A stretch of 64,000 nt of DNA from Alphaproteobacteria bacterium (GCA_964291285.2 OZ219787.1:672001-736000); one strand, 5' to 3'; counted from the first letter of the stretch, positions 17,235 through 64,000 are shown. Notes: a model not told the origin generated them from the letters alone. Program-made: numbers and translations.

Positions 17235-17238
17235 GCGC

Positions 17239-17953: not shown

Positions 17954-17963
17954 GGCCGCCCGT

Positions 17964-44724: not shown

Positions 44725-44910
44725 CGTTCATTCCCGTTGCTTCGGAGCCGCCAGTATAGAGCGGCCCGGCGGGGCGCGCCTTCAACTTTACGCGCCTGCC
44801 TTGCGTCCCTCGGGAACGATACCGGCATCCAAACCTCTCCGTTGACCGAGGATGCCCCACCCCGCCGCGATTGCTGCCATAATGGCGGTGACGGGACGGG
44901 AGGGAGACTC

Positions 44911-45681: not shown

Positions 45682-45710
45682 CAATCCCGACCCGGAAGGC
45701 CCGACCGACG

Positions 45711-48603: not shown

Positions 48604-48678
48604 CGGCTATCGCTTCCCTCGCCCTGCAATCGCTGCGATAAAGTCCCGACGACGGATGAAGGACAGGGAACGGAACCC

Positions 48679-48849
48679 ATGCCCGACGATCTTGCGGATA
48701 TCCGCAGCCATATCGGCAACCGGCACTCGGATGCCGATGTCGCGACGGCGGCTCCCGTGCTGCTGTTCCAGAAGACGCTCGGGCGCCGCGACCTGGAGCC
48801 GGAGGACGGCGCGGCGATCCCGCCCGGCTGGCACATGCTCCTGTCCTAG
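48679..48849 (+). pseudogene. Truncated 5' end of a MaoC/FAS1-like (HTD2 / mesaconyl-CoA hydratase-type) dehydratase
   Basis: Manual translation MPDDLADIRSHIGNRHSDADVAT...GAAIPPGWHMLLS*; stops just after the PPGWH motif where foreign-looking DNA begins. Confidence 0.6.
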
Positions 48850-48924
48850 CCACCACACCCGGCAGGCAATCAGCCTTTGGAGCCGGAGAATTGTGCTTGG
48901 CTAGCTTCATACAGTCAAGGGTTT

Positions 48925-49035
48925 AAAGAAAGCGGGCAGCGGAAGGCGAATTCCGCTGCCCGATCTTAGCCCGAAAATCGGACTGTAGCCTCAGTCCCCA
49001 CAAGCGCGTCAGGAACCTTCCGAAGCCATCATCAA
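48925..49035 (-). ncRNA. Candidate counter-transcribed antisense RNA upstream of repC
   Basis: Minus-strand TTGACT(49070-65)-N17-TACCTT(49047-42); 12-bp stem 48933-48962 followed by U-rich tail. Confidence 0.55.
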
Positions 49036-49128
49036 GCTCGGAAGGTAACCCCCCCGGTCTGCCTAGTCAAGCCGGGAAAGCGAAAAAAGTGGGGATCGAG
49101 GCATGGACGACGCCGAGCGTCAAAAATC

Positions 49129-50832
49129 ATGCAAGATCAAGGCACTACAGACCGCCTCAGAGGCGGCGACACCCCGCACGGCCCCTACCCAACAGGGTGC
49201 CGAATCCACAAACCCGAATACGACGCGGCTCGAGATGCCGCCGAGGCCTGGACCGGCCGGGAAGGCGGACTCGACCATTGGGCTCTTCTTGCTCTCCTCC
49301 AGGAGAACCAGCGCGTCAGGGAGCGCTTCGGCTTGAGGTCTCTCCACGTCGATTATCTCCGCGTGTCGTTCAAGAAGCTGCGCCGGGACGACTTCGAGCC
49401 GGGCGACTGCCCTCCCAGCGTCTGGATGAGCAAACGCAAGCTTGCCAGGAAACTGGGCGTCAGCCTGAGAACCGTCTCCAACATCGAGAAGGATCTCGCC
49501 CGGGCCGGTCTCCTCTACTGGAGCGACACGGCCAGCCGGCGCCGCGACGGCAAGCGCAGCAAGCAGGACAGCCGCATCAAATGGGCCCATGGCGTGACCT
49601 TCGCCCCTTTCGCCGCCAACGCCCAGGAAATCGAGGACGCAGCGAGCCAGGCTGAGGAGGAGGACATCGAAGGCGAGGGCCTGGTCCACGAGATCGCCAC
49701 AATCCGCTGCCATACCCGCATCATTCTAAAGGCAGCGCTTCGCTTCGACGAGGCGTCCGCAGCCGTGCTCCAGCCGCTTCTTGCCCGTGTCCTGGCGCTT
49801 CCGGACGCGAAGGGCATGGGCGGTTCCGACATCCACAGCCTCCGCTCCCTTGCGGTTGAGGCGCGGCATATCAAGAAGCAGGCCCGCGCGCTCACGGAAC
49901 CGGCCCTGGATGCCGTCAAACTGCCGACCGTGGAGGAGGTCGAGCCCCCTGAGTCGGCTTCGCCGGAACACCGGAAAGATGCTGAAATTTTCACCCTGGG
50001 GTACCCTCCGACGACAGGGTCCAATTCAATTACACACCAATTCCAAGAGAACACTCTTGTAGCGGCAGACCCACCGGCAGCGCCTTCCCCGCCCCCACCG
50101 AAACCGCCTGCCGCCCGCCTTTCGCCGGAAGGGGGAACCGGTAGTCCTGCGATCCTCGGCCGGTCGCCGGTCTCCGGAGGGCCGCCGGCGTGGCTCATCC
50201 TAGACTCCCTGAGCCCCCGTCTGGGCCGCTTCCTCCCGCCCGGCCGGCCTCCCACGGCCGACGATTTCTTCGAGGCCGCCAACATGACTCGCAGCGAGCT
50301 CGGGATATCCCCCGAAGCCTGGCGCGAGGCCTGCACCGCCCTGTCGCCCGCCTGGGCACTCATGGCGGTCGTCATCGTCGCCTCGCGGCACGATGTCGGC
50401 GAAATCCACACCAGCGCCGGCGGCTATTTCCGGAAGCTGATGGAGCGGGCCCGGCAGGGAACTCTCAACCTTGCCGGCTCGTTGTGGGGCGTGATCGAGC
50501 GCAGCGAGCAACTTCACGTCGCCCGGGTCGCGCCCGCAACAGAAGGAGAACCTTCCATCCCCGGTCCGGACCCGGGCCTTCAATCCTTGCCGTTGCGGGT
50601 CGGCGGGCGGCAGGCCGACCAGGCCACCATGGCAGCCATGTGCCGGACCGCCGCGGACCCGCAAGCCCTTCTCCTCGCCTGGAGCGAGCTGGTCGCCCGA
50701 TACCGCTGCTGGCCGTATCTCGATGAAGTCGAGCGCCTCTACGAACAACTCCTTGCGCCGCAAGCAACCGTCCGCGCCGGGCGGGACAACCGCCGCGCAG
50801 TCGAAAGCGACCCGGAGCCGCACCATGCCTGA
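49129..50832 (+). CDS. repC: Plasmid replication initiator RepC (repABC-type)
   Basis: N-terminal VWMS..LARKLGVSLRTV..LARAGLL..D....G..HGVTFAPF; C-terminal LGISPEAWREAC..IHTSAGGYFRKL..ARQG.LNL. Confidence 0.8.
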   Translation: MQDQGTTDRLRGGDTPHGPYPTGCRIHKPEYDAARDAAEAWTGREGGLDHWALLALLQENQRVRERFGLRSLHVDYLRVSFKKLRRDDFEPGDCPPSVWMSKRKLARKLGVSLRTVSNIEKDLARAGLLYWSDTASRRRDGKRSKQDSRIKWAHGVTFAPFAANAQEIEDAASQAEEEDIEGEGLVHEIATIRCHTRIILKAALRFDEASAAVLQPLLARVLALPDAKGMGGSDIHSLRSLAVEARHIKKQARALTEPALDAVKLPTVEEVEPPESASPEHRKDAEIFTLGYPPTTGSNSITHQFQENTLVAADPPAAPSPPPPKPPAARLSPEGGTGSPAILGRSPVSGGPPAWLILDSLSPRLGRFLPPGRPPTADDFFEAANMTRSELGISPEAWREACTALSPAWALMAVVIVASRHDVGEIHTSAGGYFRKLMERARQGTLNLAGSLWGVIERSEQLHVARVAPATEGEPSIPGPDPGLQSLPLRVGGRQADQATMAAMCRTAADPQALLLAWSELVARYRCWPYLDEVERLYEQLLAPQATVRAGRDNRRAVESDPEPHHA

Positions 50833-51643
50833 CCTCTCCAACGGACTGCCGAACAACACCGATCCCCGGGAACTTATCCGGCTCCTGCGGCGCCCCGGCG
50901 TGGCCGCGCGCATGGGACTGCACGGCAACCCCGAAGGGCCGATACGCCTTCTGGAATACTGGATCGGCGGTGTCGACGAGAAGGAATGGCTCGTGGGCGG
51001 TCGTCCCATATCGAGGGTCACGCCGCAGCAGGCCATGAACGATCTGGGACTGAGCAAAGCCGAGTTTCAGGACTACGCGCGACGGCTCCGCAAGATCGGC
51101 GCCTTCGCTCCGGTCGGATTCGATCTCGACGAAGACTCCGGGGTCTTCGATACCCCGCTCCTGGCGGCATCTCCCGCAACAGTCGACGATCTCCCATCCG
51201 TACCGGTTCGGGGACCCGACCGCATGCCTCCCTCAATCAGGGAAGCGCTCGCGCTGGTCGAGAAGATCGAAGCCATGACCGAAGCCGAGCGGAACGCGCT
51301 TTCGTCGGCAGAGAAGGACCTTTGGCTGGCCGCCACCGCAGTCAGCCGCATGCCCGTGCCCCTCGCACGGTTCATGCCGCCACTCGGAGCGCTGGACTGC
51401 GACACCGTGATCGCGGCCACGAAACAGGCCTTGCCCGAGTTCCGGATGTCGCCGCGCGCCTGGAAGGACTTCTGCCGCCAACTGCCCGAATTCCACGCGG
51501 TTATCGCCGTATGCATCGTGGTCGGAGAAATCCTCGACCACCCCGGGCCGGTCCCGGAGGACCTGCCCGACAAGATCCTCAGGCAGCTTTCGACCCAAGA
51601 AAGCACGACCTCCTTCTTCAACTCCCGTAAGCACAAGAGCTGA
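50825..51643 (+). CDS. Shortened, divergent RepC-like protein (272 aa)
   Basis: ATG overlaps repC stop by 8 bp; EKEWLVGGRPI and FRMSPRAWKDFCRQL..AVIAVCIV resemble the RepC N- and C-domain motifs. Confidence 0.55.
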   Translation: MPDLSNGLPNNTDPRELIRLLRRPGVAARMGLHGNPEGPIRLLEYWIGGVDEKEWLVGGRPISRVTPQQAMNDLGLSKAEFQDYARRLRKIGAFAPVGFDLDEDSGVFDTPLLAASPATVDDLPSVPVRGPDRMPPSIREALALVEKIEAMTEAERNALSSAEKDLWLAATAVSRMPVPLARFMPPLGALDCDTVIAATKQALPEFRMSPRAWKDFCRQLPEFHAVIAVCIVVGEILDHPGPVPEDLPDKILRQLSTQESTTSFFNSRKHKS

Positions 51644-51649
51644 CCAAGC

Positions 51650-52309
51650 ATGAGCGAACCAGACATCTACGCCGTCATCAGCCAGAAGGGCGGGTCCGGC
51701 AAAACCACGATTTCCACGAACCTCGCCGTCGAGGCCTGTCTGGCCGGAAAGAGGGCGATGATCGTGGACACGGACCCCCAGGGGTCCTCCGGGACCTGGA
51801 GCGATATTCGCGACAAGCCCTTCCCCGAGGTCATCACGACGCAGCCGAGCCGGTTGCCCAGGGAGATCGGGCGAGCTGCCGAGAGCGGCTTCGAGGTCAT
51901 CGTCCTCGACACCCCCGGGCACACCGACATGTCGATGCTGACCGCGGCCCAGCACGCCCGCCTGGTCATCATCCCGTGCCGGCCGCAGGTGTTCGACCTC
52001 GCGTCGATCCGGATGAGCCTCGACGTCTGCCGCATGGCGCAGACTCCCGCAGTCATCGTCTTCTCCGCAGCACCTACACGCGGGCACAGGCCCATCGGCT
52101 CTGCGAGAGATCTTCTGGCCCACGAGGACGTTCCGATCCTGCCGGCGATGCTTCGTCAGCGGACCGCTTTCGCTCACGCATCCTCCTACGGTCTGGGAGT
52201 GAGCGAGTTCGCACCGCGCTGCCCCGCAGCGGTCGAGGCACAAGCGCTCGCCGCTGCCGTCTTCGCCTGGCCCGAACCCGCGCTCACTGTCGTTTCGGCC
52301 GCATCCTGA
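51650..52309 (+). CDS. parA: ParA family ATPase (short form, no N-terminal HTH)
   Basis: QKGGSGKTT deviant Walker A, VDTDPQGS, LDTPG. Confidence 0.92.
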   Translation: MSEPDIYAVISQKGGSGKTTISTNLAVEACLAGKRAMIVDTDPQGSSGTWSDIRDKPFPEVITTQPSRLPREIGRAAESGFEVIVLDTPGHTDMSMLTAAQHARLVIIPCRPQVFDLASIRMSLDVCRMAQTPAVIVFSAAPTRGHRPIGSARDLLAHEDVPILPAMLRQRTAFAHASSYGLGVSEFAPRCPAAVEAQALAAAVFAWPEPALTVVSAAS

Positions 52310-52327
52310 TCCCACCGGAGACCTTTC

Positions 52328-53311
52328 ATGAGCCGCGATACCAAGCTCGACAAGAAACTGGAGCGGGCCATGGCCACCGCCCCCAAGGGTCTAGCAGAGG
52401 CCGAAATCCCGAACGCCGTTCAACACCGGCGGTCCCTGCCGACGCCGCTCGACATGATCGAAGTCGAAGACCGGCTTCGAGCCGTCGACGAGGCCGCCGT
52501 CGAGCACATCGCGGAGTCCATGGAGCAGCGAGGGCAGATCTACCCGATCCAGATCACCACGATCGAGCCAGGCCAGTTCCGCCTGGTCAACGGCGCCCAT
52601 CGGATCGCCGCAGCCCGGAAGCTTGGCTGGACGCATATCGAGGCGTTCCTGGTCGATGGTCTGGAGGAGGAAGAGGTCCGGCTTCTGGAAATCGACGAGA
52701 ACCTGTGCCGGGCCGAACTCAATGCGATCGACAAGGCCCACTTCTTTGCCAAGCGCAAGGAGATCTACCTGCGCCTGTATCCGGAAACTCGGAACGGGGG
52801 AGACCGCAAGAGCTTGGAATACCGAAATAATATCAGATGGCCGAATCGGCCAACTGATCCCGGCAGCCCAAACTTGCCTGCGAGCCGTCCACGACCGTAT
52901 GCGGAGGATACCGCAGCTTCGACACCGTGGTCCCCCCGCGTCATTCGACGCTACACCCGTATTGGTGAGCGCCTCGACCCCGCGCTCCGCGAGGCTCTTG
53001 CGGCTACCCCAATCGGCCGTCGTACGCGAGACCTCGAGACCATCGCCGACATGAAGCCGGACAAGCAACAGGACGTGCTGCAGCGGCTGCAAACCGCGCA
53101 ACAGCCTCCGACGTCCCTGTCGGCTCTCATGGCGGACCCCTACCGGCCGTCCTCTCCCCGAAAGACGAACCTGGACCGGCTGACCGCGCTCTGGTCGGAG
53201 ACCTCCGCGAGCCACCGGCGCCAATTCCTCGAATATCTCTGCAACGAAGCTTCCGAAGCCGAACGCGACGAGCTCCGTAAAGCACTCACCAACCAGGGAG
53301 ACTCCTCATGA
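52328..53311 (+). CDS. ParB/Srx-domain protein 1
   Basis: LVNGAHRIAA, EIDENLCR.EL, YPETRNGGDRKS. Confidence 0.85.
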   Translation: MSRDTKLDKKLERAMATAPKGLAEAEIPNAVQHRRSLPTPLDMIEVEDRLRAVDEAAVEHIAESMEQRGQIYPIQITTIEPGQFRLVNGAHRIAAARKLGWTHIEAFLVDGLEEEEVRLLEIDENLCRAELNAIDKAHFFAKRKEIYLRLYPETRNGGDRKSLEYRNNIRWPNRPTDPGSPNLPASRPRPYAEDTAASTPWSPRVIRRYTRIGERLDPALREALAATPIGRRTRDLETIADMKPDKQQDVLQRLQTAQQPPTSLSALMADPYRPSSPRKTNLDRLTALWSETSASHRRQFLEYLCNEASEAERDELRKALTNQGDSS

Positions 53312-53586
53312 CCACCCTTGCCGAAATTGACGCACGCATTCACCAGCCGGGCCTGACCGTGCTGGACCAGGTCGAGCTGCTGATGCAGCGCAAGCGCGCC
53401 TACTACGCCCATTCCCCCACGATAACCCCTCACGAGCTGATCGAGGCCGTGGACAACCGTCCTGATCTGCAGCCTCTCGACGGCGCCCTGCTCCTGCGGC
53501 TGATGCGAAACGCATGCCGCGGCACCCTGACGTCCGCCGAGCTGGAAGAAATCCTCGACGAGCTCGAACGGGCAGAGAAAGACTGA
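53308..53586 (+). CDS. Hypothetical protein (92 aa)
   Basis: Translationally coupled on both sides (ATGA, TGATG); GGAG SD. Confidence 0.65.
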   Translation: MTTLAEIDARIHQPGLTVLDQVELLMQRKRAYYAHSPTITPHELIEAVDNRPDLQPLDGALLLRLMRNACRGTLTSAELEEILDELERAEKD

Positions 53587-54488
53587 TGGACGCCCCGGCT
53601 GCCACCCCCGTCGTCATGCGGGAGGAGCCGCGCCAGACGGTCCTCCTGGAGCTGGACCGCATCGATCTCGGCCAGCGTCTCCGGACGATAAACGGCGGCA
53701 CCGTCCAGCACCTTGCGGAAAGCATGAAGATCCACGGTCTCCAGTATCCGATCCAGGTGCGCATGGACGGCGACCGCTATGCGCTGGTCTCCGGCGCTCA
53801 CCGGCTTCAAGCCGCGCGCCACCTCGCCTGGCCGCATATCGAGGCTTTCGTCCTCGACCTGCTCGACGAGGACACGCTGGCGCTGCTGGAGATCGACGAG
53901 AACCTGATGCGCGCCGAGCTCAACCCGCTCGACCGCGGCGTCTTCCTCGCGCGGCGCAAGGAGATCTACGAGCGGCTCTATCCGGAGACCCGGCGCGGCG
54001 GCGACCGGCGAAGCTCCGCCTACCAGGGCCAGAACGACGACGGCTCACACCGCGGCTTCGTCGCGGAGACCGCGTCCTTCACGCCGTTCTCTCCCTGGAC
54101 GATCCGCCGGGCGCTGCGCATCGGAGAGAAGATCGCCCCCGAGCTCCGCGAAGAGATCGCCATGACGGCCATCGCCTACCGAGAAGGTGACCTCTTCACC
54201 ATTTCCGGAATGGACAGTGAAGAGCAGGACCGCCTTCTGGAGGACCTCCAGAGCGCCGAACAGGAAGTCCAGGCGCTGTCCGACGTGCATCCGCGAAGAG
54301 AGCCCACCGAAAACCCGAACCCGGCGCCTGACCCGTCCTCCAACGACGAGCCGGCGCCGGAAAAGACGACGCTCGAGCGCCTGCAGACGCTATGGATCGC
54401 AGCCAGCGAGGATGAACAGGCGCAGTTCATGGCCTGGCTCGAACACATGACCGGGCAGGGCAGCGCCGAGCAGCCCGCGGCGTGCTGA
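53586..54488 (+). CDS. ParB/Srx-domain protein 2
   Basis: LVSGAHRLQA, EIDENLMRAEL, YPETRRGGDRRS; start at ATG 53586. Confidence 0.85.
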   Translation: MDAPAATPVVMREEPRQTVLLELDRIDLGQRLRTINGGTVQHLAESMKIHGLQYPIQVRMDGDRYALVSGAHRLQAARHLAWPHIEAFVLDLLDEDTLALLEIDENLMRAELNPLDRGVFLARRKEIYERLYPETRRGGDRRSSAYQGQNDDGSHRGFVAETASFTPFSPWTIRRALRIGEKIAPELREEIAMTAIAYREGDLFTISGMDSEEQDRLLEDLQSAEQEVQALSDVHPRREPTENPNPAPDPSSNDEPAPEKTTLERLQTLWIAASEDEQAQFMAWLEHMTGQGSAEQPAAC

Positions 54489-54604
54489 CAGACGCACACC
54501 GGCCAGGCAGATCCATGTATTCACCCCTTGCATCCGCAGCCGCGACGCGCTATGGTCCCTTCCTGATCGAGGCGCCCTCCAGGTCCGCTGCGGACGCCGA
54601 AAAA

Positions 54605-54679
54605 ATCAAAGTAGGTAAAACCCTCACTTTGATTTTCTGGCCCCGACCCGATCAAAGTTGGTACAACCCTCACTTTGAT
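54605..54679. repeat. Two tandem palindromic sites ATCAAAGT-N13-ACTTTGAT
   Basis: 54605-54633 and 54651-54679, 46-bp period, spacers AGGTAAAACCCTC / TGGTACAACCCTC. Confidence 0.85.
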
Positions 54680-54828
54680 TTTTCCCGCGCGGGACGCGCC
54701 GGCCTTCCGGTATTGGAGACGCGCCTGTTCCGTTTTTGTGCTCGCCGATGCCGCCTGCCCGGGGCAGGATCCGGACACAACGACTTCACACGCAGGCCGT
54801 TCCCGGTGCGCTCATGGCCCGGGTCAGT

Positions 54829-55150
54829 TCACGTCAGCACGCGAAGCGCCGCCTCCGGCGCCTTGTCAAGCACCCGCAGCAGGGCGCGCGCTGCCCCGGT
54901 CGGGCAGCGCTTCCCCTGCTCCCAATTCCGGATCGTTTCCAGCGACACGTCGATGCGCCGCGCAAGTTCCGTCTGGCTAAGGCCCATCCGGCGCCGGACC
55001 CGGCGTGTGTAGCGTGCCATGTCCTGCAACGCTTCAGCCTCGTCTTCCCGCTCCTGCGCCGCAATCTCCGCTTCCGTGGTTCCGTCCACCCTGGCCGGAT
55101 CGATCCGCCCTTCGGGGAATGTGGATGGATCGTCGGGATCGATCCTGATG
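54829..55150 (-). CDS. Xre/HTH antitoxin-like protein, 5' end degenerate
   Basis: RRRMGLSQTELARRIDVSLETIRNWEQGKRCP; frame extends to RIDPDDP without ATG; internal GTG at 55089. Confidence 0.65.
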
Positions 55151-55195
55151 CACGTTGCGCTGACAGCCCGCGACCTCCCTGGGGTTCTTCCAGCG

Positions 55196-55774
55196 TCAGG
55201 GCCAGAGCGCGCCCAGCGGGAAGGTCACTGCCTCGAAGGGCGGAAAGCGTACCGGCTCGTCTTCCTGCGCAGCGCCCGTCGGCGTCCAGGCACCGTCCTT
55301 CAGCACGAATGCCTCCAGCGTCCTGGCCGCCGGATCGACGAACCAGAGGTGACGGACACCCTCCCGCGCATAGACCGGGCGCTTTTCTTCAAGATCGAAC
55401 GTCCGCGTCGAAGGGGAAAGAATCTCGCACACCCAGTCAGGCGCCAGGGTGATGTAGGCCTCGTCAGGCGGTTCGGGCATCCGCTCCCGCCGCCAGCCGG
55501 CAAGATCGGGCACCAGGACGTCCTCGCCGAAATGGAGCTCGGGCTCGTCGACGATCCACCATCCGCCAGGACCGCCACGCCCCCTCTGGAACGGGCCGCC
55601 GATTTCGATACCGAGCGAGGAACCGGCTATGGCGTGACGAAAGGCCGGCCTCGGCTGCATATGCAGGGCGCCTTCGACGATCTCCGCGACCATATGCGCC
55701 GGCGCGTCCAATACGTCCTGGTAGTTGGCCCTGCGGGCCGGACCGCGCCGTCGCAACGCCCCCTGGGCATTCAT
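55196..55774 (-). CDS. Uma2 family (PD-(D/E)xK) endonuclease
   Basis: AEIVEG, EPELHF, VPDLAGW, PDWVCEILSPST, EKRPVYA. Confidence 0.88.
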   Translation of the reverse strand: MNAQGALRRRGPARRANYQDVLDAPAHMVAEIVEGALHMQPRPAFRHAIAGSSLGIEIGGPFQRGRGGPGGWWIVDEPELHFGEDVLVPDLAGWRRERMPEPPDEAYITLAPDWVCEILSPSTRTFDLEEKRPVYAREGVRHLWFVDPAARTLEAFVLKDGAWTPTGAAQEDEPVRFPPFEAVTFPLGALWP

Positions 55775-56067
55775 GCCATCAACTCCGGTGGTGAGCGCCG
55801 ACCCCATGCTACGCCCGCATCGCCCGCCTGTCACGGTCACCACGATATCGCTGCGGCGTTCCGGGCCGGGCATTCATCCCCTCGGCCGGGAAGCTCTTCA
55901 AGCCCGGGCATTCCCTGTTTTCGCCAGCATTCCCACTCCCGACCGAAAGGGGAAGCGGACCGACACGCTACCTGGCATGACGTCAACGAACAGGCACCCA
56001 TGAACACGGAAACCGGCAGGCAGCCCTGCCCGCCACCACTCTCACGCCCTCCCAACAGGTACACCAG

Positions 56068-56550
56068 ATGTCCCGCAGCTTACCCCTCCCGGAATCCCCC
56101 GACTTCCCGTCGCGCTTCCGCCGCCTTACCGCCCTGCAGCAGGCACAGGCCCTTGCCCAGGGTAAACGCCGTCACGAACGCAAATACGGGACACCGCCCC
56201 GCGGCGGCGATCGCCAGTCCGCAGCGTTTCGTGCACTTCGAGAACAAGAGGGCCATCGGCCCGATTACTCCCGTCCCGACCGGTGCGGCTTCACCAACTT
56301 CGTCGCCTGGCGTCTCGGATGCACTCCACGATCCATCCAGATCGCCGTGCGAATGGCCGAACGGATCCCCACGCCGCTGCAGGCCGCGCTCGCCAAAACC
56401 GCCATTGGGAACCGGAAGAAGGACCTGGTCCGGATCACCGCCATGAGCCCGCGACAACACACCGACCTTCTCCAGAGGCTGAAGGACGGACCGGTAGCCC
56501 TCACGCTCGACGAGGCTCTCGCATCACCGAAAAGCGCCGAAGCAGCATGA
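56068..56550 (+). CDS. ParB-related protein 3 lacking the N-terminal ParB/Srx domain
   Basis: PRGGDRQS and following helical/HTH region align by eye with ParB-like 1 and 2. Confidence 0.6.
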   Translation: MSRSLPLPESPDFPSRFRRLTALQQAQALAQGKRRHERKYGTPPRGGDRQSAAFRALREQEGHRPDYSRPDRCGFTNFVAWRLGCTPRSIQIAVRMAERIPTPLQAALAKTAIGNRKKDLVRITAMSPRQHTDLLQRLKDGPVALTLDEALASPKSAEAA

Positions 56551-57119
56551 CCGTAACCACCCGCCTCACACCAGGGCCCCCACCAACGATGAACACGCCG
56601 GACCCCGTCGACATTCTGATTGCCGATGGCGTCGACCACGCATTCCGCCAGCTTTCGCTCGCGCTTGAACAGCGCGTCCCCGCGCTCCTGATCGCCATGC
56701 CCGGCGAAAGCACCCGCCGATGCTGGCAGATAGCCTCTGGCTGGGCCCAGGCAATCGGCGCTTCCTCCCATGACATCGACATTCCCACTCTTGGCGGCGT
56801 TGAGGCCTTGAAGGAAGCGGAACGCCAGGTCCCGGACAACCAGGTCCTCATTCTCAGCCGGCTGCACCTTGCCGAAGACAACGAGCGCGACGCCGCGTCG
56901 CGCCTTGCCAGCGGGCGCGCAATGCGCGGCGCCCCCGTCGTTCTCTCCGGTCGCCGCGACCTCACGGGCGCCTGGACAAGCGAAAGGGACGATTTCGTTC
57001 CCACCATCCGACACGCCTCCGATGACGACGATCCACGCTTCCCGGCCCCTACCGAACTCGTCCTGCCACCCGGCCCCCGGCCTGGCAGCGCTCCCCCGGA
57101 AGAGGAAGCGACATCATGA
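56547..57119 (+). CDS. Hypothetical protein
   Basis: ATGA overlaps at both ends. Confidence 0.55.
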   Translation: MTVTTRLTPGPPPTMNTPDPVDILIADGVDHAFRQLSLALEQRVPALLIAMPGESTRRCWQIASGWAQAIGASSHDIDIPTLGGVEALKEAERQVPDNQVLILSRLHLAEDNERDAASRLASGRAMRGAPVVLSGRRDLTGAWTSERDDFVPTIRHASDDDDPRFPAPTELVLPPGPRPGSAPPEEEATS

Positions 57120-57304
57120 GGTTCATAGCCCCGCCGAAGGAACCCCCACCGCCCGTGAGCGAGCTCCTCCTCGAGCTCATCAACGCATACCCCTTCATCT
57201 TCTACCCGACCCTTGTCATCGTCTTCCTGGCGGCCGCCGCGTTCGCGCTCACATTGCTCGACCAACGCCGCCGGCGCCGGGCCCAAGCGCGCGCCGATGG
57301 CTGA
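57116..57304 (+). CDS. Small single-pass membrane protein
   Basis: Hydrophobic FIFYPTLVIVFLAAAAFALTLL followed by RRRRR. Confidence 0.55.
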   Translation: MRFIAPPKEPPPPVSELLLELINAYPFIFYPTLVIVFLAAAAFALTLLDQRRRRRAQARADG

Positions 57305-57482
57305 CAAGACCCGGATCGAGCGGTCGGACGCGACCTGGAACGCCGGCGCGGATGCACTCGACGGACCGCACTGGTGGATCGAGGAGAACCTCTGCTCCGT
57401 TTGCGCCACGAAGATGCAGGCCGCAGCAGACCCCGCCTATGCGGGCCTCTATGCCGACGACGGTCCGCCGGAACTTCCGTGA
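57297..57482 (+). CDS. Small hypothetical protein with CxxC
   Basis: MADKTRIERS...NLCSVCA; ATG overlaps previous stop. Confidence 0.4.
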   Translation: MADKTRIERSDATWNAGADALDGPHWWIEENLCSVCATKMQAAADPAYAGLYADDGPPELP

Positions 57483-57552
57483 CCGGAAATCACCCGAACC
57501 CAGGAGTTTGAGGGAAGCCTCTTCGAGGCGAACCGAACAGACGGAGGCTATC

Positions 57553-58299
57553 ATGGACGCCGCGACACTGCCGGACACCGACGAGCTCCTCCCGCCCGTC
57601 GCCCACACCATCTGGGACATGAAATACCGCTTCAAGGAGCGGGACGGCACGCCGATCGACCGGACGATGAACGACACCCGCCTGCGCGTTGCCCGGGCGT
57701 TGGCCGCGAACGACACCGAAGTGGAGATGTTCACCGACGGCATGCGCGGCTGGAAATTCCTCCCGGCCGGCCGGATCCTCGCCGGCGCCGGCACCGACCG
57801 GCAGGTCACCCTCATCAACTGCTTCGTGCTGGGCCAGATCGACGACAGCCTCTCCGGCATCCTGGACGGACTGAAGGACGCGGCCACCACCATGCAGGCC
57901 GGAGGCGGCATCGGCCACGACTTCTCGACGCTGCGTCCGAAAGGCGCACCGGTGCAACGCGTCGGCGCCGATGCCTCGGGCCCGCTGTCCTTCATGAACA
58001 TGTGGGACTCGATGTGCCGGACAATCATGAGCGCCGGCAGCCGCAGGGGCGCGATGATGGGGACGATGCGCGTCGACCATCCCGACATCGAGGACTTCAT
58101 CGACGCCAAGCGCGAGGCTGACCGCCTGCGCATGTTCAACCTCTCCGTGCTGGTCACCGACCAGTTCATGGACGCGGTCAGGAAAGACGGACCGCACGCG
58201 CTCTTCTTCGGCGGCCAGGTCTATCGCACCGTCCGGGCCCGCGACCTCTGGGACCGCATCATGCGCGCGACCTATCCCGACTTCCGCAACTCGGCTTGA
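57553..58299 (+). CDS. nrdJ: Class II (B12-dependent) ribonucleotide reductase, N-terminal fragment
   Basis: GGAGG SD; IWDMKYR, FLPAGRIL, INCFV, GGGIGHDFS, RRGAMM; 241 native aa plus IS-derived PDFRNSA*. Confidence 0.9.
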   Translation: MDAATLPDTDELLPPVAHTIWDMKYRFKERDGTPIDRTMNDTRLRVARALAANDTEVEMFTDGMRGWKFLPAGRILAGAGTDRQVTLINCFVLGQIDDSLSGILDGLKDAATTMQAGGGIGHDFSTLRPKGAPVQRVGADASGPLSFMNMWDSMCRTIMSAGSRRGAMMGTMRVDHPDIEDFIDAKREADRLRMFNLSVLVTDQFMDAVRKDGPHALFFGGQVYRTVRARDLWDRIMRATYPDFRNSA

Positions 58300-58636
58300 G
58301 AATCGACTGATTTGACGGTTTTCCGGCGCGAGAAGTGTCGGATTTCGGTGCAGTACCTCTCGGGACCGGCTTGTAGTGCCGACCTACCCCCTTGATCGGG
58401 CTGGCGAAGATCCGGACGCTGCGCTGATGTTCGTGCGCTGCAAGAGACGCTTCAAGGACGGCAAGGAGCACCGCTACTGGAGCGTTGTGGAGAACGTCCG
58501 GGTCCACGGCGGTCGGGTTGTTCAGCGTCAGGTGCTCTATCTCGGGGAGATCAACGACAGCCAGCGAGCGGCGTGGTGCCGCTCGATCGAGGTGGTGGAG
58601 GGCAAGTCGCGATCACGGCAGATGGCGCTGTTTCCC

Positions 58637-60088
58637 GGTCGTGTCCCCAGGGGTGGTGTAGGAGCTGAAGCTTCCGGTGGTAGCTGTGGGTAAGTGGCCC
58701 GCCGCCGCGACCGTCTGGAGTCAGGCGGCGGCGGGCCACTTACCCACAGCGGAGGCCATCGCGGTGCCGGTTAGGGTTGGGCTGTCACAGTCCACCTGAC
58801 CGGAGGAGTACCACGATGACCACCACCGACATGATGACCCTGCGGGCGCTGTTGGAGAAGAGTTCCGACGCCGACCTGCTTCGCGAGATGATCGGGTTCA
58901 CGGCCGCGCGTCTGATGGCGCTTGAGGTTGAGGGCCTTGCGGGCGCCGCGCACGGCGAGCGCTCGCCGGACCGGATCACGCAGCGCAACGGCTACCGGGA
59001 CCGGGTCTGGGAGACGCGGGCCGGCACGGTCGAACTGAAGATCCCGAAGCTGCGCAAGGGGAGCTACTTCCCGGGCTTCCTTGAACCGCGGCGGATGGCG
59101 GAGAAGGCGCTGACGGCGGTGATCCAGGAGGCCTACATCAAGGGCGTATCGACCCGCTCGGTGGACGACCTGGTGCAGGCGATGGGCATGTCGGGCATCT
59201 CCAAGAGCCAGGTGTCGCGGCTGTGCGGCGAGATCGACGACAAGATCCGCGACTTCCTCGACCGGCCGCTGGAGGGCGACTGGCCGTATCTCTGGCTTGA
59301 CGCGACCTATGTGAAGATGCGCGAGGCCGGGCGCGTCGTCTCGGTCGCGGTCACCATCGCGGTGGCGGTCAACGATCAGGGCCGGCGCGAGGTGCTCGGC
59401 ATGGCGATCGGCGCGTCCGAGGCCGAGACCTTCTGGACCGACTTCCTGCGCTCGCTCGCCCGCCGCGGCCTGCGCGGCGTCAAGCTGGTGATCTCCGACG
59501 ACCACAAGGGCCTGAAGGCCGCCGCCACCCGCATCTTCGGCGCCACCTGGCAGAGATGCCGCGTCCACTTCATGCGCAACCTGCTCGCCCATGCCGGCAA
59601 GCAGGGCCGGCGCGTCGTCTCCGCCTTCGTCACTACCGCCTTCGCCCAGGAGGATGCAGACAGCGCCTCCGCCCAGTGGCGCCAGGTCGCCGACCAGCTC
59701 AGGCCCAAGGCGCCAAAGCTCGCCGCCATCATGGACGAGGCCGAGCACGATGTTCTCGCCTACATGACCTTCCCGGCCGCGCACCGCGCCAAGCTGCACT
59801 CGACAAACCCGCTCGAACGCCTCCACGGCGAGATCAAGCGGCGCACAAACACCGTCGGCATCTTCCCCAACGAGGACGCCATCACCCGGCTGATCGGCGC
59901 AATCCTGCTCGAGCAGAACGATGAATGGGCAGTCCAGAGAGCCAGATACATGACGCTGGAATCCATCGCTCCCGTGAGCGACAATACAACCGTCAAGTTG
60001 CCCGCCGTGGCAGCCTGAGCGTTCCGGCCCTACCCGCCGGACACCGCTACGGACGCCAGGCTCTTACACCACCCGCGGGGGCACGATC
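58637..60088 (+). mobile_element. IS256-family insertion sequence (1452 bp)
   Basis: Imperfect 28-bp IRs (23/28) GGTCGTGTCCCCAGGGGTGGTGTAGGAG; 9-bp duplication CTGTTTCCC at 58628-58636 and 60089-60097. Confidence 0.92.
58816..60018 (+). CDS. IS256-family transposase (400 aa)
   Basis: [57 protein letters not shown]. Confidence 0.95.
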
Positions 60089-61724
60089 CTGTTTCCCGAG
60101 GACCGGGAGGCGCCGGCGCTGACTTGCGAAGTGGTGAAGATCGACCTCTCGCAGGTGGCGCTTCACGACCCGCGCCAGTGGGGGGCGTGCTGGCTGGCGC
60201 TGTCCTTGTGGGACCGCCTGGACCTGGACCGCTTCTGGGAAGAGCGGCTGCCGGCGAGCCGGCAAGGCACGCGGTGGCTGGACATCCTGAAGATCCAGGT
60301 CTGCTACCGGCTGATCGACCCGGGCAGCGAGTGGCGCCTTCACCGTCACTGGTATGAGCACAGCGCGCTTCGCGATCTTCTGGGTGGCGAGCGGGCGATC
60401 GCCGACGACACACTCTATCGCTGTCTCGACAAGCTGCTGGCGCACAAGCAGGGCTTCTTCTCGTTTCTGCGCGACCGCTGGGCGACGCTGTTCGAGGCGC
60501 GCTTCGACGTGCTGCTCTACGACCTGACCTCGACCTACTTCGAGAGCGATCCGCCGTTCGATGACAAGCGCCGCTTCGGCTACAGCCGGGACAAGCGGCC
60601 CGACTGCGTGCAGGTGGTGATCGCCCTGATCGTTACGCCGCAGGGCTTTCCGCTGGCCTATGAGGTGATGCCGGGCAACACCTCCGACGACACCACGCTG
60701 GCGGCGTTCCTCAAGAAGATCGAGGATCAGTATGGCCGCTCCGAGCGGGTGTGGATCATGGACCGCGGCATCCCCACCGAGGAGACGCTGGCCGCGATGC
60801 GCGAGGGCGAGGCGCCGGTGCGCTACCTGGTGGGCACGCCCAAGGGCCGGCTGACGCGGCTCGAGAAGGTGTTCCTGGGCCTGCCCTGGCAGGAGGTGCG
60901 CCAGTCCGTGACTGTCAAGCTTCTGGTCGAGGATGGCGAGCTCTACGTCCTGGTGCGCAGCGAGGGGCGGCAGGTGAAGGAACGCGGCATGCGCCGGCGC
61001 CGGCTGAAGAGGCTGTGGCGTCGATTGGCCGAGTTGCAAGGGCAGTCGAACAGCCGGGATCAGTTGTTGCTCAAGCTCGGCGCCGCCAGGAAGGAGGCCG
61101 GCCGGGCCTGGAGCCTGGTCGACATCACCGTGCCCGGGACCGACAGCGAACTCGCCGCCAACGGCTTCTCATTCCGCCTGCAGCGCGACCGGCTGCGCCA
61201 GGTCCGCCGCCGCGAGGGCCGTTACCTGCTGCGATCCAACATGGTCGCCGAAGACCCCGCCACGCTGTGGCATCTGTACATGCAGCTCGTCGAGATCGAG
61301 CAGGCGTTCAAGGAACTCAAGCACGACCTCGCGATCCGCCCCATCTTCCATCAGCGCCAAGAGCGCATCGAGGCGCATATCTTCGTCTCGTTCATCGCCT
61401 ACTGCCTGCTGGTGACCCTGAAGAACCTCGCCCGGCCGCGCGCCCCGGGCCTCACCCCACGCGCCATCCTTGAGGCCTTCGCCACCATCCAGATGGTGGA
61501 CGTCCATCTGCCAACCACCGACGGCCGGCACCTCGTCCTGCCGCGCCACACCCGGCCGAACAAGGAGCACGAGCTACTGCTGCAACAGCTCGGCATGACC
61601 TGGCCGCAGCAACCCGCACCCCGGATCTCCGCCTGACGGCACACGGCGCCGCCTCTCCGTTCGCCGCCTTGTAGTGCCGACCCTCGGGGAGACGATCAAG
61701 GCTATTCAATGAGTTAGCATCCTC

Positions 61725-63278
61725 ATGACCCCCGAGTTGCGGAAGTCGGGCTATGACTGCGCCGAGCCCGGGGTGATCTTCATCGACCGGATCAACGCCA
61801 CGAACAATCTCCGGCACTGCGAGACGATCTACGCGACCAACCCCTGCGGCGAGCAGCCCCTGCCGGACTGGGGCTCGTGCCTGCTGGGCTCGATCAATCT
61901 GGCCGCCTTCGTCAACGCGCCCTTCGAGGACGGCACCCATATCAACGAAGCCGACCTCGCCTGGACGGTCGCCACGGCCGTCCGGATGCTCGACCGCGTT
62001 GTCGACCGGTCCTTCTATCCCCTCGAGCAGCAACGCGAGGAAGCCTTGTCCAAGCGCCGCCTCGGCCTCGGCATCACCGGCCTGGCCGACGCGCTCGCGT
62101 TCATGGGCATCCGCTACGGCTCGGATCTCGCCGTTGAACGCACCCGGGACCTCGTCTCCATGCTGCAGACGGCCGCATACCGCGCCAGCGCCGTCCTCGC
62201 CGGTGAAACGGAGCCCTATCCCTTATGGGACCTCGAGCGATTCCTGCAGACGGACACCGCGCAGCAGCTCGACGCGCAGACGCTGGACTTCATCCGGAGC
62301 AACGGCCTTCGCAACTCGCACCTCACCTCGGTCGCGCCGACCGGCACCATCTCGCTGATCGCGGGCAATGTTTCCGGCGGGATCGAGCCCGTCTTCGCGC
62401 ACAGCTACACGCGCCGGGTCCTGCAACCGGACGACAGCCACACCGAAGAGCAGGTCCTTTCGGCCTCGATGGCGCTCTGGCGCCGGATGAAGGGCGACGA
62501 GCCGCCTCCGGACCATTTCGTCAACGCCGGCACGATCACACCCAAGGAGCACATCCGGATGCAGGCCGCGGCGCAGGCCCATATCGACAGCGCCGTCTCC
62601 AAGACCGTGAACCTGCCCAGGGACATCTCCTTCGACGACTTCAAGGAAGTCTACCGCCTCGCCTATGTGTCCGGCTGCAAGGGCTGCACCACCTACCGGC
62701 CGAACGACATCACCGGCGCGGTCCTGGTCGCGGACGGCGACAGGCAGGACGGGCCAACCCCGACGATCATGGACCGGCCGCCGGTCCTGGACGGCCAGAC
62801 CCGCAAGGTCAGCTGGCCCGGAAGCGAGCACGCCTTCTACCTGGTCCTGAACCACTCGCAGGATGCGGACGGCACGAAGCGCCCCTTCGAGATCTTCATC
62901 AACACGAAGGACGCCCGCCACCATGCCTGGATCACCGCCATCACGCGGATGATCTCGGCCGTCTGGCGCCGGCAGGGCGATGTCGGCTTCGTTTCCGAGG
63001 AGCTGATGGCCATAGCGGACCCGAACGACGGCCAGTGGGTCCGGGGCCGCGGCTGGGTTTCCTCCCTGATCGCGCTGATCGGCATGGAGATCCGCGACTG
63101 GATGGTCGAGCTCGGCCATATCGATCCGGACGAGCCCCTGCCGCCGATCAAAGCCGGACCGGCGCCCGGCACCGAACGTCCCGCCGGCCCGGTCTGCCCC
63201 AAGTGCCACCAGCCCGGGATGATCCACCAGGAAGGCTGCGACGTCTGCCCGTCCTGCGGCCATTCGAAGTGCGGCTGA
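61725..63278 (+). CDS. nrdJ: Class II ribonucleotide reductase, C-terminal fragment with IS-derived start
   Basis: [43 protein letters not shown], terminal [14 protein letters not shown]; first 9 codons lie in the IS right end. Confidence 0.9.
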
Positions 63279-63326
63279 CCGCGTCCCCCGACGACGGGCG
63301 GCAGCCCTACAGGAGTTAACGATCCC

Positions 63327-64000
63327 ATGACATCCTTGCCCCGACATCTCCCATCCATCCTGGCCGCTACCGCACTGCTTGCCTTCGCTCTGCCGGCGCA
63401 AGCCGAAACACTGTCCGGCCAGGCCCGCGTTATCGATGGCGATACCTTCGCCGTGGCCGGCGAGCAAATCCGGCTCGACGGCATCGACGCCCCGGAGACC
63501 AGGCAGACCTGCACCCGCGACGGCCACCCCTGGGCATGCGGCAGGGCCGCCACACAGGCCATGCGCCAGCTCATCGGCCGGACCCCTGTCCGCTGCGAAG
63601 TGAGCGGCAGGGACAAGTACGGCCGCGCGATCGCCGCCTGCTTCGCAGCCGGCCGGGACCTGCAACAGCAGCTGGTCCGGCAGGGCCTTGCACTCGCCTA
63701 TCGGAAATACTCCACACGCTACGTACCGGACGAGGAGGCGGCCCGGGCCGAAGGAGTCGGCCTCTGGTCCGGAGAGTTCACCGCGCCCTCGGACTGGCGG
63801 AAGCAAAACCGAAATCGCCAGGCGAAGATACACCGGCGCCCGGGAGCGAACTCTTCTTCCCGCGCCGGCTCCCCCTGCCGCATCAAGGGCAATATCAGCA
63901 ACGCCGGCCGCATCTACCATGTCCCCGGAGGCAGGCACTACGAGCAGACCCGGATCAACACCTCCAAGGGCGAACGCTGGTTCTGCAGCGAGGCCGAGGC
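63327..64000 (+). CDS. Secreted thermonuclease (SNase-like), runs off window end
   Basis: AGGAG SD, signal peptide ending AQA; VIDGDT, IRLDGIDAPE, DKYGR, CRIKGNIS..IYHVPG..RWFCSEAEA. Confidence 0.88.
   Translation, partial: MTSLPRHLPSILAATALLAFALPAQAETLSGQARVIDGDTFAVAGEQIRLDGIDAPETRQTCTRDGHPWACGRAATQAMRQLIGRTPVRCEVSGRDKYGRAIAACFAAGRDLQQQLVRQGLALAYRKYSTRYVPDEEAARAEGVGLWSGEFTAPSDWRKQNRNRQAKIHRRPGANSSSRAGSPCRIKGNISNAGRIYHVPGGRHYEQTRINTSKGERWFCSEAE

Follow-up and report, generated by a model that had tools for sequence, protein, structure and literature searches.

The window analysed here, a stretch of 64,000 nucleotides from an alphaproteobacterial genome (G000), contains from position 48838 onwards the left end of a giant ICE, whose plasmid-type maintenance module probably works like a rearranged repABC replicon. 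The repC-par cluster is the left-end maintenance module of this element, which is inserted in a host gene. The ICE family, about 130–190 kb in size, occurs in one genus of uncultured Alphaproteobacteria.

Insertion junction and ends of the element

The junction lies between the following two features:

48679–48837, plus strand: 5′ fragment (53 codons) of a host gene for a MaoC-like/FAS1-type dehydratase, cut by the insertion
48838–48859: left end of the element, a CT dinucleotide followed by a 20-nt arm

The remainder of the interrupted dehydratase gene begins at C2:1049092 of the same genome, and the Pfam family FAS1_DH_region was found both on this part and on the homologue in the related genome G019. 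Homology to uninterrupted sites in relatives stops at 48837. Such a site is present in seven congeneric genomes: in G010, G011, G013 and G015, the sequence of C3:720837 is joined directly to that of C2:1049092, and in G005, G008 and G009 the two flanking genes are ~235 bp apart. In the seven loci with RepC, homology begins sharply at the element end and the flanks differ. The same insertion site is used by three genomes, and G019 and G007 show the same junction as G000. The first-pass annotation had placed the start of an inserted element at 48841, right to within 3 bases, and the insertion itself is supported by the uninterrupted sites and the defined ends. It had also named a chimeric join at 48.84 kb as a possibility. 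The join is bridged by contigs from three sequencing runs, which probably stem from the source organism and are thus not independent; short-sided joints in these contigs (sides of 20–30 letters) were taken as repeat artefacts. Since G019 and G007 share the junction, 48837/48838 is a true insertion junction and not an assembly chimera.

The left-end arm and the right end (C2:1049075–1049091) match as an imperfect inverted repeat of 15/16 nt, each member of the pair occurring once in the genome. A direct-repeat att site was not found: a 32-nt left-end probe, allowing up to seven mismatches, had no second copy. An ATGCT motif is present on both sides of the elements in G000 and G019, whereas the other four have imperfect flanking repeats (CCGCT/ACGCT, CCGCT/ATGCT, ATGCT/ACGCT and CCCCT/ACGCT), which leaves CT as the only sequence common to both junctions across the six elements.

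Judged by sequence, a large serine recombinase is most likely the integrase of the element. Its full-length gene is located at C3:738509–740098, 2.5 kb past the window end, and is syntenic in G014 and G019, that is, in three of the three elements examined beyond 15 kb. A serine recombinase fits this role because the ends are inverted and the junctions share the CT dinucleotide. Two observations count against it: the G019 recombinase is 5′-truncated, and attB of the amidohydrolase site shows little likeness to attP. Other candidates were rejected. The genes g498, g435 and g638 near the right end belong to a pilus operon, g498 being PilN-like (TIGR02520, E = 9e-43). A 200-aa tyrosine recombinase of G019 is not conserved in G014 and only partial in G000, and two tyrosine recombinases at C3:749075–752299 are absent from the G019 element and represent a separate 3.9-kb insertion.

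Transfer genes identify the element as an ICE

In G019, both element ends are found at the same site on one contig, 156.6 kb apart. Between them, we identified a MobF relaxase (146.9 bits, cut-off 100), a TraG/VirD4-type coupling protein, DotA/TraY (TIGR04346, 231.9 bits, cut-off 100), a DotB/TraJ-like protein (TIGR02524, 251.6 bits, below the cut-off of 463), T4SS_TraI and DotD (PF16932, 191 bits; PF16816, 89 bits), and PilN-, PilS- and PilV-like proteins of a type IVb thin pilus; the secretion genes are of the Dot/Icm-IncI-like kind. This Pfam scan took in 59 of the 148 called ORFs, omitting ORFs before 59 kb, those shorter than 90 aa, five ORF sizes of repeated IS and border-spanning ORFs. 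Genes were called by a third-position-GC script, which misses genes, the serine recombinase among them. In G000, the orthologous parts (C3:955–10496, C3:2075.5–2119.2 kb and C2:1047667–1049091) lie apart from the module.

None of 44 island proteins matched a virion category of PHROG (head, tail, connector, packaging, lysis), and Pfam scans of G000, G014 and G019 revealed no virion family either. With its relaxase, coupling protein and type IVB secretion genes between the ends in G019, and no virion gene among these 44 proteins or in the Pfam scans, the element is an ICE and not a phage-plasmid. The first-pass annotation had offered the latter as one option and held that the class could not be fixed; neither statement is supported.

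Organization of the putative replication and partition module

The module is a densely packed operon in the order repC-orf2-parA-parB1-orf92-parB2, followed by three further genes:

49129–50832, plus strand: repC, divergent RepC-family initiator of 567 aa
50723–51643, plus strand: orf2, paralogue of the RepC C-terminal domain only
51650–52309, plus strand: parA, small ParA-type ATPase of 219 aa with a deviant Walker A motif (KGGSGKT)
52328–53311, plus strand: parB1, ParB_N domain with a GAHR box and a C-terminal domain (phrog_3264, E = 1e-49)
53308–53586, plus strand: orf92, small ORF without a family match that overlaps both parB genes
53514–54488, plus strand: parB2, paralogue of parB1
54829–55089, minus strand: XRE-family regulator, between parB2 and the third ParB-related ORF
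55196–55873, minus strand: Uma2-family endonuclease, kept in L005, L009 and L010
56068–56550, plus strand: short third ParB-related ORF of 160 aa, C-terminal half only

The repC product carries the Pfam domains RP-C (65.6 bits) and RP-C_C (73.3 bits), both above the gathering threshold, and repC is the only RP-C gene in the whole genome. Against the NCBIfam model RepABC_RepC (NF040974), it scores 109.4 bits, below the cut-off of 150, with positions 35–392 of 393 covered; canonical RepCs show 28–33% identity to it. Its AlphaFold model has a mean pLDDT of 65.7, and a ~100-aa insert is predicted to be disordered. A Foldseek search of this model against the PDB gave no match at E ≤ 0.001; the weak, non-significant hits were MarR-like winged helices, the DnaD N-domain and a RepA_N initiator. 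The adjacent orf2 overlaps repC by 110 nt, and its likeness to RepC is confined to residues 365–431 (36% over 67 aa, E = 3e-7). It is shared with G019 (71%) and not kept in the other loci; ORFs of L006 and L010 considered as homologues were ruled out on alignment.

The partition proteins are only distantly related to those of repABC. ParA reaches 156 bits against NF041546 (cut-off 180) and 45.6 bits against TIGR03453 (cut-off 348), the latter alignment covering the P-loop alone. ParB1 and ParB2, which are 44% identical over 287 aa, score 46.4 and 36.0 bits against the RepB model TIGR03454 (cut-off 201.5). The nearest named relatives of ParB1 are ParB-like proteins of Mu-like phages (~29% identity), which are not known to bind centromeres. 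Canonical ParB has a GERR box where ParB1 has GAHR. Many of the island's entry and anti-restriction genes also encode ParB-domain proteins, such as a 737-aa ParB-HTH protein.

The order described in the first-pass annotation, with repC first, then a RepC-like paralogue, a short ParA and two ParB-like genes, was confirmed, and its view that this is a plasmid-type replication and partition module and not a repABC operon is borne out by gene order, ParA size and profile scores. For its third ParB-related gene, a short ORF indeed exists, but its likeness to ParB2 is limited to the C-terminal half (33% over 120 aa, E = 1e-14); homologous stretches occur in L007, L009 and L010. A longer ORF at 55019–56446 has no likeness to ParB2, looks like a wrong frame and was discarded. 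The two minus-strand genes between parB2 and this ORF had not been listed.

Candidate cis elements

Several conserved non-coding or overlapping elements accompany these genes:

48838–49128, plus strand: 291-nt leader upstream of repC with hairpins, kept in 7/7 loci
48890–48918, minus strand: outward promoter-like site TTGACT-17-CACAAT, hexamers in conserved leader columns
48923–49045, minus strand: candidate antisense RNA, at its end a 12-pair terminator-like hairpin (48962–48933) with a T-rich tail
49982–50067: 86-nt A+T-rich island in repC, candidate oriV, with palindromes at 49991–50004 and 50044–50059
54606–54632 and 54652–54678: two tandem 27-nt A+T-rich palindromes (TCAAAGT-N13-ACTTTGA), candidate centromere (parS)

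The antisense/leader region folds at –58 kcal/mol (z = –4.6), and none of 200 shuffles was as good. Of the 61 predicted pairs of the leader fold, 15 are changed on both sides in at least one sequence; of the 11 pairs of the island palindromes, 3 are changed on both sides. This covariation rests on seven related sequences and about two independent events. One outward promoter-like site was found, compared with 0.0 expected in shuffles. The search for promoters in the leader revealed none for the candidate antisense RNA, and an Rfam scan of 48000–57000 gave no ctRNA family at E ≤ 1 and a single chance-level match.

Within the A+T-rich island, third-codon identity is 0.80 compared with 0.10–0.61 in other windows of repC, the GC content of 0.50 is the lowest among the windows, and 90.9% of cells are paired compared with 35–49% when slid. 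The encoded part of the protein is a linker with pLDDT < 50, predicted to be disordered. The tandem palindromes are unique in the genome and located in a convergent, promoter-less gap after parB2; they are found at the same place in 5/5 relatives' loci with parB2 and are absent from L008. As far as sequence conservation can tell, the leader with its putative antisense terminator, the repC island and the palindromes parallel repABC biology.

Distribution of the module

In 7/7 loci, the module sits ~280 bp inside the left end. Its genes differ in history: in L009 and L010, RepC is 45–48% identical, yet ParA is 95–97% identical. For orf92, identity in these two loci is 86–95%. In a collection of 72,556 plasmid records, RepC matched 135, none of which reached 60% identity or extended over more than 80% of the length; the best plasmid RepCs show at most ~35% identity over partial lengths. 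ParB1 matched three records. No described plasmid or ICE family matching the module was found in the plasmid collection or in literature searches, in agreement with the earlier proposal of an undescribed type.

Decay of the element in this genome

Downstream of the module, the window contains the following genes and insertions:

56869–58271, plus strand: 5′ part of nrdJ, class II ribonucleotide reductase, with likeness to relatives from near 57286
58272–58637 and 60089–61757, plus strand: IS4-like element in nrdJ, interrupted by an IS256-like element
58638–60088, plus strand: nested IS256-like element inside the IS4-like element
61725–63278, plus strand: 3′ part of nrdJ, class II ribonucleotide reductase
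63327–64000 (running to 64034), plus strand: staphylococcal-nuclease homologue (SNase) with a signal peptide

The nrdJ gene is split at about 58272/61757, and a run contig joins 58627 to 60089 at the nested IS. In relatives, nrdJ is intact (748–877 aa), and the L009 homologue reaches 554.9 bits against TIGR02504 (cut-off 399.95). The element had been credited with its own ribonucleotide reductase, which is here an IS-split pseudogene; the gene for the Sno helicase is likewise split by an IS. The predicted secreted nuclease was verified as an SNase from 63327, whose N-terminus (...ALPAQA/ET) resembles a signal peptide.

In G000, pieces of the element are spread over at least three contigs (C3, C5 and C2); going by the gene order of G019, the start of C3 follows on from the end of C5. 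The apparent right border of the island in C3 is a rearrangement junction and not an element end. Other members of the genus are assembled in one contig each (3.9–5.6 Mb). In the X22 and X23 contigs, the element has the same depth as its flank, both being parts of one contig. Because the ends lie on different contigs in G000, there is at present no excisable element that the module could serve; it is probably a recently stranded relic and the ICE in this genome is probably immobile. Being fragmented, the element is here a fossil and not a working replicon. We also considered repC as the origin mark of a separate 2.2-Mb replicon and dropped the idea as the G000 contigs proved to be fragments; the cumulative GC skew of the five contigs is too noisy to place origins.

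A model for the function of the module and its alternatives

The data show how the element is built, that it is inserted, to which family it belongs and that its cis elements are conserved; from this, we infer how replication, antisense control, partition and integration would proceed. The element would insert by conservative site-specific recombination, most likely via the large serine recombinase. RepC would start theta replication at an A+T-rich origin within its own gene, its expression being limited by an antisense RNA from the conserved leader, and the small ParA with ParB1 and/or ParB2 may segregate the excised circle via the two palindromes after parB2. The products of nrdJ, the nuclease gene and downstream genes would be cargo or DNA-entry functions. 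Such a rearranged repABC-like module at the left end of a giant ICE is the explanation we consider likely. A bolder extension, which we put forward tentatively and regard as doubtful, is that the family consists of true ICE-plasmid hybrids of 130–190 kb that are either integrated, through the serine recombinase and its CT core, or persist as low-copy plasmids. The RepC replicon would then re-create the repABC logic in a new order, with antisense RNA, origin in repC, ParA/ParB and parS. Circularization would place the left-end outward promoter before the right-end pilN-like gene and thus before the pilus and secretion operon, so that transfer genes would switch on only after excision.

Some findings weigh against an ICE-borne replicon: the equal depth of element and flank, the RepC score of 109 bits below the equivalog cut-off of 150 together with the fold search lacking a significant match, the phage-like affinity of ParB1 and its scarcity among plasmid records (3/72,556), the Rfam and promoter searches, and the lack of orf2 conservation across the family. 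The RepC- and ParB-like proteins might instead be ICE regulators or DNA-processing factors that control excision or transfer or protect entering DNA. The weak resemblance of the RepC N-domain model to winged-helix regulators, none of it significant, would agree with this, as would the Mu-like relatives of ParB1/2, the frequency of ParB-domain proteins among the island entry and anti-restriction genes, and the occurrence of the RP-C_C domain alone in orf2 and a 673-aa protein of L005. This reading, which we regard as unlikely, explains neither the synonymous-site conservation of the repC island, nor the close coupling to parA, whose product is an ATPase with a deviant Walker A motif, nor the palindromes in a convergent gap devoid of promoters. 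Alternatively, the module could be the relic of a plasmid co-integrated or captured by a conjugative island, or a secondary-chromosome origin, with no role in the ICE life cycle. RepC-only plasmids of the RepC_soli type are described (PMC9025767); dnaA (C2), canonical parB (C1) and repC (C3) are on different contigs in G000, and RepC and the par genes differ in history. But the five contigs are fragments and not replicons, module and dnaA share a contig in G014 (its only one) and G019 (C1), the position near the left end is constant in 7/7 loci, and the plasmid collection holds no close relative, which makes a relic quite unlikely.

Insertion as a DDE transposon, with inverted ends and a 5-bp target duplication, would account for the inverted repeats and for ATGCT on both sides in G000 and G019. 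We consider it improbable, as the flanking repeats are imperfect in four elements with CT alone common to all, three genomes share one site, and the genes beside the right end are PilN-like and other pilus genes, not transposases. A phage-plasmid or prophage is hardly credible: phages commonly have nrdJ, DUF5131 (phrog_2045), ParB-like proteins, methylases and HNH genes, but virion proteins are missing from the 44 island proteins and the Pfam scans, and what relatives possess in their place is a relaxase with a type IVB secretion system.

Comparison with known systems

Among the closest parallels to the rearranged module is repABC. For p42d of Rhizobium etli, an oriV in the A+T-rich middle of repC, a cis-acting RepC and an antisense RNA before repC are described (PMC3155836). 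The module resembles repABC in a putative initiator of the RepC family, a conserved A+T-rich stretch in mid-repC, a structured candidate antisense element before repC, and a ParA/ParB pair whose operon also holds a palindromic site. In contrast to repABC, repC comes first, ParA has 219 aa compared with ~400 aa of RepA (type Ia ParA), two ParB paralogues and a fragment are only distantly RepB-like, and RepC, at 567 aa with a ~100-aa disordered insert, stays below the equivalog cut-off. Moreover, no ctRNA of Rfam was matched and the module is integrated within an ICE. The origin-in-gene and antisense features have apparently been retained despite a reversed gene order and swapped partition proteins.

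RepC_soli plasmids of Rhodobacteraceae (Birmes et al. 2021) likewise use a RepC-type replicase without RepA/RepB, as cited in PMC9025767. Unlike the module, they are free, small and promiscuous plasmids.

ICEs with replication and partition of their own make the distinction between plasmids and islands less sharp, and the known cases use other initiators. Tn4371-family ICEs carry repA-parA-parB. SXT/R391 ICEs show replication and active partition, as cited in PMC5704250. Like these, the elements described here are integrated and conjugative with initiator and partition genes, presumably for keeping the excised circle. They differ in that the initiator is RepC, secretion is of the IncI-like type IVB and not F or T, the likely integrase is a serine and not a tyrosine recombinase, and the size of about 130–190 kb is much larger. 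A RepC module on an ICE would carry the best-studied alphaproteobacterial replicon type over to integrated elements; the family is unusual also in its size, its type IVB transfer in Alphaproteobacteria and its integrase, probably a serine recombinase. In G000 itself, the region amounts to a decayed mobile element whose nrdJ is a pseudogene.

DotA/TraY, DotB/TraJ, DotD, the DotC-like TraI and a thin pilus of the PilN/PilQ/PilS/PilV type are known from the IncI1 plasmids R64/ColIb-P9 and Dot/Icm systems. Dot/Tra proteins and a PilN/PilQ/PilS/PilV-type thin pilus are likewise found here, but, unlike IncI1, the element is integrated, occurs in Alphaproteobacteria and combines a MobF relaxase with a RepC replicon.

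Insertion site and gene content

Core genes (leuS, lptE, glnB-glnA, two tRNAs, luciferase-like monooxygenases and an adenylate cyclase) fill the window up to 48603; the source genome comprises 6.13 Mb in five contigs (C1 to C5), with 68% G+C, and the window spans C3:672001-736000. In four congeners (G010, G011, G013 and G015), the sequence left of 48837 runs straight into the position of C2:1049092, and in three further genomes (G005, G008 and G009) the cyclase and dehydratase genes are spaced by ~235 bp. The insertion cuts the MaoC-like dehydratase gene after 53 codons. Based on this comparison with relatives, the boundary at 48838 is an insertion with exact ends. The left end reads CT CCTGTCCTAGCCACCACACC; with the right end (...GGTGTGGTGGTAGGAAA, at C2:1049091) it makes an imperfect inverted repeat of 15/16 nt, and neither arm has another copy in the genome. 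A chimeric join at 48.84 kb, raised in the first-pass annotation, was not seen: contigs of three sequencing runs span the left junction without differences, though the sequenced material was probably the source organism itself, so this support is not independent.

In seven loci, namely the window and six fetched from the genus, conservation sets in ~280 bp ahead of the repC start, and the flanks are of several kinds (cyclase/dehydratase, amidohydrolase, hydantoinase, a metallo-beta-lactamase-fold gene, porin). One run labelled sponge metagenome (X1) contains contigs that share 90-96% identity with the host flank (window 44001-48704) and end before the element, as well as a parA-like piece (51655-52286).

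Genes of the element, in order from the left end

repC, from 49129, plus strand: 567 aa, Pfam RP-C and RP-C_C
orf2, overlapping repC by 110 nt, plus strand: 306 aa, similar to RepC residues 365-431 only
parA, after orf2, plus strand: 219 aa, deviant Walker A motif
parB1, a 92-aa ORF and parB2, after parA, plus strand: the two ParBs are 44% identical
XRE regulator, then Uma2 nuclease, after parB2, minus strand
160-aa ORF, after the Uma2 nuclease gene: resembles the ParB2 C-terminal half
nrdJ (broken), then a signal-peptide nuclease, after the 160-aa ORF

The originally proposed order of repC, a RepC paralogue, ParA and two ParBs holds, with the XRE and Uma2 genes missing from it; of the "third ParB-related gene", nothing stands beyond the likeness of the 160-aa ORF to the ParB2 C-terminal half. 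A long ORF at 55019-56446 was rejected as a wrong-frame artefact.

The element carries a type IVB transfer system

In the related genome G019, the element occupies the same site and both ends lie on one contig, 156.6 kb apart. Between them we found the repC module, an intact nrdJ and the same accessory series as in the source genome: nuclease, HU, a 737-aa ParB-HTH protein, RadC, C5 methylase, Strawberry-notch helicase, YAcAr and NADAR proteins, Toprim primases (several in G019), DUF2201 and DUF7007. The G019 element also encodes a dnaN-like sliding clamp (16709-18082 of locus L027; TIGR00663, E 7e-27, below cut-off), two SSBs, a MobF/TrwC relaxase, a TraG/VirD4-type coupling protein, and DotA/TraY, DotB/TraJ-like, T4SS_TraI and DotD proteins. 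A thin-pilus operon (PilN-, PilS- and PilV-like proteins, PilQ-type ATPase) adjoins its right end, and seven copies of a 3.9-kb IS are present. In another relative, G014, 190.8 kb separate the two ends, and a second ICE is nested between them.

The first-pass annotation had considered a phage-plasmid and held that the class could not be fixed. None of 44 island proteins of the source genome matches a virion category of PHROGs, and the G019 ends enclose relaxase, coupling protein and secretion genes. Gene content thus places the element among ICEs, with a transfer system of type IVB (IncI / Dot-Icm-like), and not among phage-plasmids.

The insertion is flanked by short repeats: ATGCT/ATGCT in the source genome and G019, CCGCT/ACGCT in G014, CCGCT/ATGCT in G008, ATGCT/ACGCT in G007 and CCCCT/ACGCT in G009. 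A duplication made by a transposase could be suspected, but only CT is common to all six elements, which argues against it. Large serine recombinases use a 2-bp crossover, and their attP sites are imperfect palindromes; the CT core and the inverted ends fit such a crossover. A full-length large serine recombinase gene lies at C3:738509-740098, 2.5 kb beyond the window end. Its product resembles the TP901-1 integrase (E 2.4e-9) and the SPbeta recombinase (~1e-6); over 515 aa it shares 34% identity with a serine recombinase verified by Pfam. The gene is syntenic in G014 and G019 (5'-truncated in the latter), and we consider it the likely integrase of this ICE.

The element is fragmented in the source genome

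Judged by the G019 gene order, the element is split into four or more pieces in the source genome:

C3:720838 to ~783 kb: begins at the left end
C3:10496-955: runs on into the end of C5
C3:2075.5-2119.2 kb: secretion system, ending in the 3' part of pilN
C2:1047667-1049091: 5' part of pilN and the right end

The pilN break adjoins copies of a 2.4-3 kb MTase-HNH/IS1595 unit. This unit combines an N6 methylase-HNH gene with an IS1595-type transposase, and copies lie at C2:1045.1-1047.7 kb and at C3:2119.2-2121.7, 783.4-786.4, 662.5 and 1313.5 kb. Its presence at the break points suggests either recombination between copies or assembly mis-joins. Position C3:789144/789145 was rejected as the right border; it is a rearrangement junction, adjoining C3:22780 in G010. 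In G010 and G011, C3:789145 is adjacent to C3:22780, and C2:1036854 to C3:2043643, which indicates further large rearrangements beside the ICE pieces.

The Sno (Strawberry-notch) helicase gene is split by an IS21. A ~3.9-kb piece inserted at C3:748.9-752.8 kb carries two adjacent tyrosine recombinase genes (L001:13075-16299 = C3:749075-752299) and has no counterpart in the elements of G019 and G014. The nrdJ gene, previously taken as the element's own ribonucleotide reductase, is interrupted at ~58272-61757 by an IS4-like element (~2.0 kb) that itself carries an IS256-like element; the genome has two further ribonucleotide reductase genes at other positions. Genome-wide, the IS4-like element has ~46 copies and the IS256-like element 22-23; in contigs of three runs, word depth over the IS pair (window 58272-61757) is 40-100 times that of its flanks. 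The repC operon is still open-reading. In this arrangement, the element could hardly excise.

A second ICE, ~80 kb in length, is present in the source genome in at least four copies, full or partial (C5:10-89 kb; C2:1-13, 257-296 and 458-533 kb; C3:1880-1916 kb). Contig ends fall within copies, and C2 and C5 begin inside them. The second ICE encodes a 571-aa unknown protein, ParA, a ParB-like protein, nuclease, serine recombinase, Toprim and SSB, together with TrwC relaxase, coupling protein, type IVB system and a PilN-like protein. It is this type that is nested inside the G014 RepC element.

A divergent RepC restricted in distribution

Within the genus, RepC relatives occur in nine of 16 other genomes; a sample of 400 further genomes from across the class gave none. 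RepC aligns end to end with the RepABC_RepC profile, scoring 109 bits, below the curated cut-off of 150. Canonical RepCs are 28-33% identical to it, and 1.84 billion representative proteins include 17 matches at E <= 1e-30. By these searches, the window RepC represents a small, divergent RepC clade.

In two relatives' loci (L009 and L010), RepC is only 45-48% identical to that of the window, against 95-97% for ParA and 87% for ParB2; in a third (L005), RepC is 75% identical and ParB1 only 64%. These contrasts indicate recombination between the repC and par parts. The parB1 gene of G008 (L006:13130-14110) contains an in-frame stop codon.

Conserved cis elements

At the nucleotide level, three cis elements are more strongly conserved than the proteins. 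One is an 86-nt island within repC (49982-50067), where third-codon identity among four elements is 0.80, compared with 0.10-0.61 in the other stretches scored, and G+C falls to 0.50. It is still recognisable where RepC is only 45-48% identical. Its two palindromes show compensatory changes in three of 11 pairs (seven sequences, about two independent events), and 90.9% of cells are paired, compared with 35-49% when slid. Because an AlphaFold model of RepC places the island in a linker (residues 260-360, pLDDT <50), the constraint acts on DNA or RNA. Contigs of run X24 (window 50061-54925) break at 50061/50267, around the island, and word depth is 56-67 in internal contigs versus 151 in the flank contig; strain heterogeneity within run X24 is a possible cause.

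The 291-nt leader upstream of repC is conserved in all seven loci. Its minus strand contains a 12-pair terminator-like hairpin (fold z = -4.6), reminiscent of the repABC antisense RNA, and no Rfam family matches it. Just 3' of parB2, in the convergent gap, lie two tandem 27-nt A+T-rich palindromes, unique in the genome and present in all five relatives' loci with parB2, which we read as a candidate centromere. The nearest named relatives of ParB1 are ParB-like proteins of Mu-like phages (~29% identity) and only three plasmid records match it, which counts against a centromere/partition reading. The RepC initiator, the origin candidate in repC, the antisense-like leader, and ParA and the ParBs with the palindromes probably constitute a maintenance module of the ICE. 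More speculatively, circularisation would bring a promoter-like site that faces outward (48918-48890) to a position ~75 nt upstream of the start codon of the right-end pilN-like gene.

Comparison with known systems

In the literature covered, largely outside subscription journals, neither a RepC module carried by an ICE nor this RepC-bearing ICE family turned up; nor did a search for a described plasmid or ICE family give a match, the best plasmid matches to RepC being partial and below 60% identity. It is established that ICEs and IMEs can carry replication initiators and partition proteins (PMC5704250). In p42d, the origin maps to the A+T-rich central part of repC, and replication is lost when silent changes are made there (PMC3155836); the window repC likewise has a conserved A+T-rich stretch inside the gene. 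RepC without RepAB occurs on RepC_soli plasmids (PMC9025767), whereas the RepC module of the window resides on an ICE. ICEs with replication and partition genes and plasmids with RepC alone are thus already known, and what appears new here, from sequence comparison, is the RepC module on an ICE.
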